Part shown: positions 5,848-46,344 of the stretch, in pieces | How the letters are laid out: the number at the start of each line of letters is the position of its first letter | Numbering within the stretch: the first letter of the stretch is position 1 | Assembly: GCA_963760615.1 (NCBI GenBank) | Contig: CAVXDX010000008.1 | Location: 128,001-192,000 of the forward strand | Reading direction: 5' to 3' | Origin: an uncultured Candidatus Micrarchaeota archaeon | Lineage (GTDB): Archaea; Micrarchaeota; Micrarchaeia; Burarchaeales; Fermentimicrarchaeaceae | DNA length: 64,000 nt | Program-made: the position numbers and the translations under genes | The notes under the pieces: model-generated | What the model saw: only the letters and a program-made list of their open reading frames with translations | Database searches by the model: none | Told to the model about the DNA's origin: nothing

Positions 5848-6555
5848 ATGGTCATAGTAAAAGTTCATGACGAGATCGCAAAACATCATGGGGGGGATAC
5901 TGCTACATGGATCGACGAGATTAGGAGGCAGAAAGATAACGAGGGTATTAGGAAGAAAATGCAGGAATTCGCAGAGAAGCACGGTTCAGATGTTAAAATG
6001 GTTGGTGGCCTAAGCGGTGCTTTGCTTGAGGGGTTCAAAAGGGTCAAGGACAACAATACAAAAGCTACTTACGGCAGTGCAATGATTTATCTTGCTAAGA
6101 GCCTGAATGAGAGGGATGAGGAGCTTATGGGTAAGTTGGATGTTTTTAATAAGGCAGTTGAGGAAAAAGGCGGCACGGTTTGGGTTGTGAAGAGAGACAC
6201 GAAGATTGGGGATATGATGAGCTTTTCCAGCGACTTGATGGGAATGGAGATTAAAAAGAATACCGATAATATGCTCTCAGTCAGGAATGGGGCGATTCCT
6301 GTGAAGGAAAACAGTGGAAAGGTCATTGCCGAGGAGACTGAGAAGTTTATGAAGTTGCTAATGAGCACGTATTACAGAAGCGGTTATGCGGTTGGGATTG
6401 AAAATATTATAACGGGCGTGACAAGCAACTTGGCTGTTTGGGGAGACGAAGTAAGAGACGGAATTAATCGTGCAACTGCAGAAGCAGAGTCATTGGGGAT
6501 AGATGTCAAAAAACTCGAACGCACGGCAACATTCAGCTCAGTAAAAGCAGAATGA
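5848..6555 (+). CDS. Hypothetical protein
   Basis: 235-aa ORF with upstream TTTATAAA box and GGTGA SD; no family recognised. Confidence 0.7.
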   Translation: MVIVKVHDEIAKHHGGDTATWIDEIRRQKDNEGIRKKMQEFAEKHGSDVKMVGGLSGALLEGFKRVKDNNTKATYGSAMIYLAKSLNERDEELMGKLDVFNKAVEEKGGTVWVVKRDTKIGDMMSFSSDLMGMEIKKNTDNMLSVRNGAIPVKENSGKVIAEETEKFMKLLMSTYYRSGYAVGIENIITGVTSNLAVWGDEVRDGINRATAEAESLGIDVKKLERTATFSSVKAE

Positions 6556-6568
6556 GGAAAGTTGGAGA

Positions 6569-7204
6569 TTATTTATAGCCGAACTCTCCAATGAGAGGGA
6601 CAAAGACAACAGGCATAAGGTTGGATGTCTCTTCTCCAAATCTTGTTTTAACAATAAGCTCCAAATCCTGAAATATTCTTGAGCCAACTGGTATGAGCAG
6701 TTTTCCCTCATCTTTAAGCTGGTCCACCAAGGGCTGCGGAATGGAGGGTGATGCAGCCGTGACAATTATCCTGTCGTATGGAGCTTCTTGGGGATAGCCT
6801 TTCGTGCCATCTCCCTCAACAAACTTAACATTTGCATAACCAGCCTTCTCAACATTTGCTTTTGCAAGCTCTATGAGTTCCGGAATCCTCTCAACGGTGT
6901 AGACTGCCCCCGAGCTGCCTGTAAGCTCCGCGAGGATTGCCGCTTGGTAACCGCTTCCCGAGCCTATCTCCAGTATCTTCATGCCCTCATGCACATCGAG
7001 GGATTTGCTCATGAACGCAACGATGCTCGGGGCAGAGATGGTCTGTCCGAATCCTATTGGCAGAGGAGTATCGGAGTAGGCGCTTCTCGCATGTTCGGAA
7101 GGGACGAACAACTCCCGCGGGACCTTCTCCATGGCTTTAACAACCCTCTCATCTGCATAGCCCTGCCCGTAGAGAAGCTGAATCATATCCTCATTGCGGC
7201 CCAT
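6569..7204 (-). CDS. pcm: Protein-L-isoaspartate O-methyltransferase
   Basis: GQTISAP, LEIGSGSGY SAM motif, APYDRIIVTAA. Confidence 0.95.
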   Translation of the reverse strand: MGRNEDMIQLLYGQGYADERVVKAMEKVPRELFVPSEHARSAYSDTPLPIGFGQTISAPSIVAFMSKSLDVHEGMKILEIGSGSGYQAAILAELTGSSGAVYTVERIPELIELAKANVEKAGYANVKFVEGDGTKGYPQEAPYDRIIVTAASPSIPQPLVDQLKDEGKLLIPVGSRIFQDLELIVKTRFGEETSNLMPVVFVPLIGEFGYK

Positions 7205-39198: not shown

Positions 39199-39299
39199 AA
39201 TTCACCACCCTATTCATTATGGGGAGAGATATTTAAAATCTATGGCTTTGGTAACCTTGCAGATGTATTAGACAATTTCTGCAATCTGCAGTTTTTCAC

Positions 39300-39550
39300 C
39301 GGAAAGTTACCCCTCAGAGAGGTTTATAAAGCCATCTTTTGTAATCACATCACCGCCAACCCATAAGGCGCAGAAGGGAGTCGCAAATACGAACCACCTA
39401 TGTATGCCTGTATTGCATAAAGCCGGCAGGTTAAGCATAGGGGCGGAATACCTCCGGGCAGGGGGGAATGCAAGCGTGTGGAGAATCCGATGGGTATTCT
39501 GGGAAGCACGAAGTCCCTGAAGTAAAAAAGCTGATGAGGGGGCATGTCAC
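39300..39550 (+). mobile_element. Non-autonomous IS200/IS605 (tnpB)-derived element, 251 bp
   Basis: Left TTTCAC|CGGAAAGTTACC and right GCATGTCAC shared with 46279-46344; relic tnpB-like tail ACGE...SGKHEVP and RTTYVCLYC; no intact ORF. Confidence 0.68.
39323..39330 (+). promoter_or_regulatory. Archaeal TATA box inside the element
   Basis: TTTATAAA preceded by a purine-rich BRE-like CAGAGAGG; no + strand protein gene follows. Confidence 0.55.
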
Positions 39551-39570
39551 AATCCATACTTATAGTTTGG
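39353..39570 (+). ncRNA. Candidate TnpB-type omegaRNA (scaffold plus ~20-nt flank-derived guide)
   Basis: Stems CCTATG/CATAGG, CCTG/CAGG, AGAAT-CC-GATG-GG-T-ATTCT, CCCT/AGGG; GTGG(39478-81) can pair with terminal TCAC(39547-50). Confidence 0.5.
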
Positions 39571-40258
39571 AATACTTCTCCCTTATTTCCTTCATTCTGC
39601 CGCAGGAGAAAGTCCCCTCTGGGCATGTGCCCAGTTGCACGCAGGATGGACCTGCTTTCTCAAATATGACCGGAGCAACCTTCTTGCATTCCTTTGCCAT
39701 AAGCTCAGCGAGCTCCCTTATCTCCCACTGCGCCCTCTCGCAGCAGCGCAGGGAAAAGAAGTGGAGCAGCTCCCTGCAGTTCATTGTCACGACAATTGTC
39801 GCCTTGGTTGCGTTAGGAAGTATGTAGCGTGCGTCCTCAACGGGCACGCCCAGCTGTATGAGCTCATCATAGCTTCTCCTTATGTCGGAGAGAGCGGACT
39901 GGAAAAGTTTTGAGGCTTTTTCATTGCCGTTTACTATAGGGGGGATTACGAATGCATCCTCACCGCTTACCCTCACATACCTCTGGCTCTGCTGTGTGTA
40001 AGAAGCCATTCTGTGCCTGACAAGCTCGTGGGTGAGGGCCCTTGAAACCCCGGATACGCTGAATGTGAAGGAGGCGTGCTCTGTAACAGAAATGTGACCT
40101 GATTTTATTATCTCCCTGAGAAGCTTCATTGCTTTTTCCCTCTCCCCTGCGGACTTGGCGAGCAGCTCAGCAGGTGCAAGGCTGCTCCTCGAAGTTTTTG
40201 CAACTGCTGCACAGACCAAGTCCGGGTCGGGCGTATGGGCTATGAGTTTTACTTCCAT
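39560..40258 (-). CDS. thyX: FAD-dependent thymidylate synthase
   Basis: GHISVTEHASFTF, RHRMASYTQQSQRY, EDARYILP, AQWEIR. Confidence 0.96.
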   Translation of the reverse strand: MEVKLIAHTPDPDLVCAAVAKTSRSSLAPAELLAKSAGEREKAMKLLREIIKSGHISVTEHASFTFSVSGVSRALTHELVRHRMASYTQQSQRYVRVSGEDAFVIPPIVNGNEKASKLFQSALSDIRRSYDELIQLGVPVEDARYILPNATKATIVVTMNCRELLHFFSLRCCERAQWEIRELAELMAKECKKVAPVIFEKAGPSCVQLGTCPEGTFSCGRMKEIREKYSKL

Positions 40259-40324
40259 GAAAAAACCTCCCAATAGTGTTTAAGGGAGAAAGTATAAAAA
40301 CGTTATAAGAGGCAATTTAATTAC

Positions 40325-46239: not shown

Positions 46240-46284
46240 GATAGCCTTCTCTGCAAAGGGCTTTGCGCATAAATTCACTTTCAC

Positions 46285-46344
46285 CGGAAAGTTACCACAA
46301 TATAGCGGGAAAGCCCACACCATTTATGGGTGGGAGCATGTCAC
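46285..46344 (+). mobile_element. 60-bp miniature IS200/IS605-end element (PATE-like)
   Basis: Same TTTCAC|CGGAAAGTTACC left junction as 39294-39311; right hairpin CCCAC-A-CCA-TTTA-TGG-GTGGG then AGCATGTCAC. Confidence 0.68.

Follow-up and report, generated by a model that had tools for sequence, protein, structure and literature searches.

Location and architecture of the unit

The window analysed here is a 64,000-nucleotide stretch (C8:128001-192000) of a 1.14-Mb genome that is assembled in 16 contigs and is 91% complete (G000). The unit under study occupies the gap between a small minus-strand gene, which has a weak match to class III (pilin-type) signal peptides, and thyX. Its features and those of a second, shorter unit are listed below in window coordinates.

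39232..39236, plus strand: TTTAA, target or TAM 5' of the element; present at the empty sites of G003, G004 and G005 and at the filled sites of G000 and G002
39237..39294, plus strand: outer left end, decayed, without the left-end hairpin
39295..39313, plus strand: upstream promoter motif TTCAC-CGGAAAGTTACCCC, with the near-palindromic core GGnAAnTTnCC
39323..39330, plus strand: TATA box TTTATAAA, at the distance from the motif that is found in four full-length tnpB elements
39353..39550, plus strand: omegaRNA-like scaffold of ~198 nt with nine helices, ending in GCATGTCAC; from covariance models R1 and R2 and from covariation
39551..39570, plus strand: predicted guide AATCCATACTTATAGTTTGG, the flank adjoining the right end; from the general position rule of TnpB omegaRNAs
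39560..40273, minus strand: thyX, the right-hand neighbour (Pfam Thy1, E 1.2e-71), with its stop codon 10 nt from the element's right end
46260..46344, plus strand: 85-bp stub in which the left-end spacer GGCTTTGCGCATAAATTCACTTTCAC is followed by 12 nt from the start of the promoter motif and then by the right-end hairpin with GCATGTCAC

The 251-bp core of the unit begins with 31 nt that comprise the upstream motif and the TATA box. Only spurious open reading frames cross the unit, and a 38-aa relic of a TnpB C-terminus is left of its coding capacity. Both ends of the core recur at 46279-46344, as the earlier note had pointed out. Exactly two occurrences of TTTCACCGGAAAGTTACC are found in the window, at 39294 and 46279, where chance would give 0.02, and GGG(G/A)GCATGTCAC terminates both units, at 39550 and 46344. 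The stub at 46260-46344 lacks both the TATA box and the scaffold. A second copy of it is located at C3:56171-56255, between flanks that differ from those in the window. The segment GGCTTTGCRCATAAAT, met also at the pilin-thyX site of G001 (below), is the left spacer in several G000 elements, including the stub at window position 46260.

Insertion site in related genomes

The thyX flank was located in all six genomes of the genus. G003, G004 and G005 have no insertion at this site, and their TTTAA is followed by 8-10 nt and then by TTATAG, TACAG or TATAG. Comparison with these three sister genomes defines the inserted segment as the 314 bases 39237-39550, placed directly after the TTTAA at 39232-39236, which is itself part of the region around the TATA box of the divergently oriented pilin promoter. 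The left boundary is thereby moved outwards from TTTCAC, where the earlier note had drawn it. An S-type unit, the same kind as the window copy, is found at the same pilin-thyX site in G002, also after TTTAA, and other copies of the family sit after TTAA, TTTAA or TTAG.

Other members of the family start with a left-end hairpin, GAGCGAGAAACCCAC..GTGGGATGAAAGCGA. In intact members the left-end hairpin reads CCCAC..GTGGG-ATGAAAGCGA; it is missing from window 39237-39294, intact in the paralog C8:7596-7908, and reduced to its 3' half in the G002 copy. Since the hairpin is lost, the window copy is probably immobile.

The pilin-thyX site of G001 (L103, C20) carries a different, full tnpB element. 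This element is bounded by terminal inverted repeats, GGCTTTGCACAT and ATGTGCAAAGC, and the 9-nt sequence AAATGTATT, of which the empty sites have one copy, is directly repeated on its two sides. Neither inverted repeats nor a target duplication would be expected of IS200/IS605 elements. The left junctions in G000 and G001 both join TAT(T) to GGCTTTG, and the first 9 nt of the window element, AATCTATGG, could be a copy of the target AATCCATAC, that is, a 9-nt duplication. The thyX gene most similar to that of G000 is the one of G001 (85%), despite the different element there.

TnpB elements of the genome and the kinship of the unit

A search of the genome with the window unit gave 13 matches. 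Four are S-type units of ~251 nt: the window copy, C8:7657-7908, C3:83348-83599 on the minus strand, and C16:2261-2498. Two are stubs that measure 60 nt from promoter motif to right end, at window 46285-46344 and C3:56196-56255. Pfam searches of the genome identified six full-length TnpB genes and several fragments. Four elements of ~1.22 kb, here called F-type, start with TGGAAAGYTACCCCTCC-N6-TTTATAAAGG and finish in GCATGTCAC; they have the promoter motif and the terminus in common.

C8:33468-34687: F-type tnpB element
C8:119961-121185: F-type tnpB element
C7:55311-56534: F-type tnpB element
C13:24403-25625: F-type tnpB element

The F-type TnpB proteins, such as the one encoded at C8:33525-34670, are 381-393 aa long and are composed of HTH_OrfB_IS605, OrfB_IS605 and Cas12f1-like TNB domains. 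The local F-type TnpB matches ISDra2 TnpB over nearly its full length (E 5.6e-39), and the RuvC D, E and D residues are retained. No nuclease-dead TnpB was identified among the F-type proteins, whose catalytic residues were examined. The earlier note had proposed a search for intact tnpA and tnpB copies elsewhere in the genome. TnpB genes with the D/E/D residues are indeed present, and the Y1 transposase TnpA (PF01797) was not found in this 91% complete genome or in nine genomes of the family. The tnpB elements and PATEs are polymorphic among the ten family genomes, though TnpA was not found there.

In an alignment, the short units match the tnpB 3' end and right end collinearly over their last ~110 nt. 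Blocks common to both are the GGGCA-loop hairpin, GAA(G/U)nAA(C/A)GCCUG, UGAAGCAGGAAGCCCA, the terminal hairpin, and GCAUGUCAC; the GAAGCAGGAAGCCCA block is collinear between S-type units and tnpB elements as well. The covariance model R1, built from 12 short units only, matches the 3' ends of all four F-type tnpB elements with E values of 1e-9 to 1e-11, and the matches stop at GTCAC. Similar partial matches of ~120-200 nt were obtained in 15 further genomes of the phylum sample, outside the genus, and the shared core is visible in the alignments. The window copy itself scores 192 bits with R1 and 189 bits with R2.

A weak blastx match (E 0.011 against a six-protein database) pairs a relic reading frame of the unit, ..QGGMQACGESDGYSGKHEVP.., with the C-terminus ..PGQGGSNACNS..SMKQEA.. 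of TnpB proteins from the same genome. In the same comparison ..RNTSGQGGMQACG..SGKHEVP.. is collinear with the TnpB tail ..RATPGQGGSNACNS..SMKQEA... The C-terminal relic that the earlier note had read in ..SGKHEVP.. thus aligns with the TnpB tail, at the low significance just given; the second relic proposed there, a Zn-ribbon-like SQIRTTYVCLYC in the 5' domain, found no support in blastx. By these alignments and model matches, homology to the tnpB 3' end and right end, where the TnpB omegaRNA lies, covers the 3' ~110-130 nt of the predicted window RNA.

The unit at C4:42417-42594 (L094) has the same promoter motif and TATA box joined straight to ~150 nt of the F-type tnpB 3' end, and contains no tnpB. 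As an independent deletion derivative, it indicates that promoter-to-RNA deletions arose more than once.

We interpret window 39237-39550 as a gene-less, PATE-like derivative of a TnpB-only IS200/IS605-family (IS1341-type) element, and assign this reading a probability of about 0.78.

Promoter motif shared with host genes

The combination of TTCAC-YGGAAAGTTACCCC and a TATA box is not confined to insertion sequences. In G000 it also precedes host genes for MCM, SMC, HerA, Nre and a PIN protein, and small conserved open reading frames.

C8:127725: MCM (L108)
C8:18465-: SMC (L109)
C5:25904: HerA (L039)
C3:144924: Nre (L038)
C12:31307: PIN protein (L041)

The motif core GGnAAnTTnCC occurs in 19 exact copies in G000 and in 13-30 copies per genome in the genus; the reversed control occurs 0 times. 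In G006, which belongs to another genus and has no omegaRNA match, the motif stands before the orthologous MCM and Nre genes and small genes (loci L112-L117). With a TATA box ~10 nt later, TTCAC-YGGMAAGYTACCCC is also found before at least three kinds of tnpB element, so that the upstream motif precedes tnpB genes and orphan RNA units alike. The window promoter segment TTCACYGGAAAGTTACCCC belongs to this motif. It looks like a putative replication/repair regulon motif that is shared with, or was copied by, insertion sequences.

We had at first accepted TTTCAC as the TAM, nearly all copies having TTCAC on their 5' side. This candidate was rejected because TTCAC is the promoter motif of host genes in another genus and because the insertion follows TTTAA at the empty sites.

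The TATA box that the earlier note had placed at 39323-39330 is borne out, as the same motif and spacing precede four intact tnpB genes. In all four F-type elements the tnpB ATG lies 27 nt 3' of the TATA box, which points to a leaderless transcript. From the spacing in the F-type elements, the start of the window RNA is predicted at ~39352-39357, at the first base of helix H1.

Fold and covariation of the RNA

The predicted scaffold folds into nine helices, of which the following, all on the plus strand, were placed individually.

H1, 39353-57 / 39442-46: long-range helix CCGCC/GGCGG, among the two best-covarying helices
H3, 39397-401 / 39435-41: CCTATG/CATAGG
H4, 39407-11 / 39426-30: CCTG/CAGG
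H6, 39451-55 / 39461-65: hairpin with a GGGCA loop, among the two best-covarying helices
H7, 39475-78 / 39507-10: from the consensus structure
H8, 39481-88 / 39493-501: GAGAATCC..GGTATTCT
H9, 39513-43: terminal hairpin, CCCT/AGGG

Covariation was assessed in 13 copies from four genomes of the genus, realigned to the nine-helix structure. In this set 95.2% of the cells are paired, against 82% with shuffled partners and 42-50% with partners slid by one to three columns. Changes on both sides of a pair are seen in 22 of the 42 pairs (5-10 in the controls), and the covariation score is 0.41 (at most 0.12 in the controls). Because the 13-copy alignment was fitted to the model, two independent checks of the fold matter. 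RNAalifold run on a plain MAFFT alignment already yields 12 compensated pairs, and the H3/H4 hairpin folds alone in 12/12 copies from differing sequences (CCUAUG/CAUAGG, CUGCA/UGCAG, CUUCUGG/CCAGGGG). The window copy retains 38 of the 42 consensus pairs, with three of the four misses being effects of alignment register, and a single-sequence fold of it recovers the helices. The stability of the folded window RNA is no better than that of shuffled sequence (z -1.0) and is not informative.

The stems that the earlier note had read from the single sequence (CCTATG/CATAGG, CCTG/CAGG, GAGAATCC..GGTATTCT and CCCT/AGGG) correspond to H3, H4, H8 and H9, and the covarying changes in relatives that it had anticipated are those counted above. 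Its stem list did not include H1 and H6, the best-covarying helices. A pseudoknot between GTGG (39478-81) and the terminal TCAC, also proposed there, finds no counterpart in the 11 other aligned copies, which lack GTGG at this position and mostly read GGCTGAG against GTGGAG in the window.

The omegaRNA assignment gained nothing from curated models, as Rfam 15 gave no family for the window unit at gathering score or at E values up to 10. A C/D-box snoRNA on the minus strand at 39280-39358 was rejected, its Rfam scores lying far below threshold.

The 5' domain and the spread of the family

The S-type RNA family comprises at least 19 stand-alone copies with strong covariation, which occupy unrelated loci in different genomes, as mobile elements would. 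Helices H2-H5 (~39358-39441) are conserved in all S-type copies. The 5' ~90 nt have no counterpart in the tnpB-linked matches of the genus, the family or ~150 genomes of the phylum. Metagenomes were scanned by a search for a conserved loop, and among the 80 loci listed there are at least six true copies. The six true copies listed all stand alone, each with its own TATA box, and two of them are quite divergent. Across the genus, the family, the 150 phylum genomes and these six copies, no tnpB gene with a full S-type RNA was found.

The metagenome copy L126 has an IS605-type left-end hairpin after TTTAA. Divergent metagenome relatives of the S-type RNA (L126:1100-1190 and L184, minus strand, 6520-6600) have GGGATGAATTGGC(W)(R)TTTT in common before the TATA box, in place of the GGAAAGTTACC motif. 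A 417-aa open reading frame just 3' of the L184 copy was considered as a TnpB; it has no Pfam match and is not TnpB.

The stand-alone state of the S-type copies, together with a 5' domain that lacks any tnpB-linked match, suggests that the family has been free of tnpB for some time. The unmatched 5' ~90 nt also qualify the internal deletion of tnpB that the earlier note had put forward. A protein-free derivative with promoter and scaffold is what we find; a simple internal deletion of a local tnpB element does not account for its 5' domain.

The unmatched 5' half and the missing Rfam match are what could be said for an unrelated family of non-coding RNAs that resembles tnpB ends by chance. We consider such a coincidence hardly credible, since the promoter motif, TATA box, GGGCA hairpin, GAAGCAGGAAGCCCA, terminal hairpin and GCATGTCAC are all collinear with tnpB elements, and the family has IS605-type left-end hairpins and TTTAA flanks.

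Conservation and proposed function

Identity between the G000 and G002 copies is 58% in the outer left end, 87% in the promoter and 77% in the RNA, and it is 77% in the thyX coding sequence. Judged by this pair of sequences, the promoter and RNA of the window copy appear to decay no faster than a coding gene. These values bear on the possibility that the unit is an inert fossil, a dead fragment of a once-mobile PATE that is untranscribed or makes an idle transcript, and whose structure reflects selection on active master copies. The decayed left-end hairpin, the failure to find TnpA in the family, and a guide without a target in the genome all fit a fossil, as does the site being empty in three of the six genus genomes, which makes the unit dispensable. 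We nevertheless regard it as rather unlikely that the unit is inert, because promoter and RNA are conserved at least as well as thyX while the outer left end is not, and because the window copy keeps 38 of its 42 consensus pairs.

If the gene-less derivative is active, its RNA would start near 39353 and read through the right end, and the 3' tail (AATCCATAC...) would serve as the guide. The sequence 3' of the unit contains no strong T-run terminator. An intact TnpB made elsewhere in the genome would bind the RNA in trans. The complex would then cut a vacant allele, recognized as TTTAA followed by the guide match AATCCATACTTATAG, and cutting would favour retention of the element or its re-copying by homologous recombination. 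Cutting of the vacant allele followed by recombination is the established TnpB/omegaRNA mechanism. Loading of the window RNA by TnpB in trans is plausible, given that the genome has intact TnpB genes and that their elements share the 3' scaffold. The 5' ~90 nt have no tnpB-linked counterpart, so the local F-type TnpB may not bind this RNA. With the left-end hairpin lost, the homing role cannot operate on the window copy itself, which would be a stranded guide-RNA gene whose only target is an empty allele coming from outside.

A search of the genome with the first 16 nt of the guide, allowing up to two mismatches, found no target elsewhere, and the guides of the family match their own flanks only. 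This pattern fits the classical homing role and does not fit a TldR-like regulator. The TldR-like partner that the earlier note had allowed for thus loses its footing on two sides, as a nuclease-dead TnpB was not identified among the F-type proteins and the genome offers the guide no second target.

The predicted guide is antisense to the thyX stop codon (39560-39562). A domesticated regulator could take two forms: an antisense RNA acting on the 3' end of thyX, or the guide of a TldR-like, TnpB-derived repressor acting on the neighbouring genes. The presence of a unit at the same site in two species is in keeping with a regulator, and the promoter motif is common to replication and repair genes, with thyX making a DNA precursor. 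A regulatory role is very unlikely all the same. G003, G004 and G005 lack an insertion at the site and G001 has a different tnpB element there, the catalytic D/E/D residues of the local F-type TnpB are intact, the guides point to their own flanks, and copies at unrelated loci across genomes form the pattern of a mobile element.

Returning to the gene-less derivative of a tnpB element, we tentatively speculate that the S-type units may be a long-lived RNA-only selfish lineage that parasitises the TnpB of other elements and is driven by a promoter copying a host replication/repair motif. This possibility is raised by the family's own ~90-nt 5' domain and by the stand-alone persistence of its divergent metagenome relatives. 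If true, the guide would be expressed in step with the availability of sister-chromosome templates and recombination proteins.

Relation to known elements

PATEs (palindrome-associated transposable elements), which are IS605 derivatives devoid of genes, have been described before as carriers of omegaRNAs, and the window unit is an added example. PATEs often encode omegaRNAs that need the TnpB of other elements to act in trans (Meers et al. 2023, doi 10.1101/2023.03.14.532601). The PATEs of Geobacillus stearothermophilus reported in that work resemble the window unit in having no protein gene, ends in common with tnpB elements, and a right-end omegaRNA. The window unit differs from them in being archaeal (Micrarchaeota) and in that its RNA directly adjoins an archaeal TATA promoter located in the left end. 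It further differs by the extra ~90-nt 5' domain of its RNA, by the loss of the left-end hairpin, and by a genome and family in which TnpA was not found.

Archaeal PATEs are known from Haloquadratum walsbyi as the core-deleted IS1341 elements HqIRS71 and the 52-bp, terminal-only ISHwa23 (Dyall-Smith et al. 2011, PMC3119063). In HqIRS71 the terminal segment is extended and takes in part of the tnpB C-terminal coding region, though it is non-coding, and the Haloquadratum insertions are strain-specific without an evident working TnpA (PMC3119063). These elements are like the window unit in being archaeal and tnpB-derived, and the 85-bp unit at 46260-46344 is similar to their 52-bp stubs. They come from another phylum and have other sequences, and the 2011 work predates the omegaRNA concept, so RNA structure and promoter were not analysed in it.

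The layout of ISDra2 (PDB 8BF8, 8EXA, 8H1J) is similar in general terms: the 3' end of tnpB overlaps the scaffold, which terminates at the right end, and the flank supplies the guide. Unlike ISDra2, the window unit has no tnpB, and its TAM appears to be TTTAA or TTAR. The TAM of ISDra2 is TTGAT.

The sotRNAs are archaeal non-coding RNAs from the 3' end of IS1341-type tnpB genes of Halobacterium (Gomes-Filho et al. 2015, PMC4615843). An intact tnpB overlaps the sotRNAs, whereas the window unit has lost the gene and its RNA is preceded by the promoter of the element itself. TldR systems (Wiegand et al. 2023/2024, doi 10.1101/2023.11.30.569447) likewise use an omegaRNA-derived guide outside a mobile context. 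The window unit is not a member of this group, as a dead TnpB was not identified here and no distant target matches the guide.

The unit is an archaeal (DPANN) example, with good support from comparative evidence, of gene-less IS605 derivatives that keep the guide RNA, and the analysis yields a covariance model and a structure for the S-type RNA. If the window RNA loads onto TnpB made elsewhere, it would be a natural case of trans-acting guides that compete for a nuclease. Two wider observations perhaps matter more than the unit itself. Polymorphic insertions in genomes where TnpA was not found pose the same puzzle as those of Haloquadratum. The promoter motif common to tnpB elements, RNA-only derivatives, MCM, SMC, HerA and Nre suggests co-expression of TnpB and its guide with functions in replication and repair.

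At the window start, the MCM gene (L108:139-2700, continuing into window 1-~2400) includes an intein, and this intein has a LAGLIDADG homing-endonuclease domain (Pfam Intein_splicing and LAGLIDADG_3).
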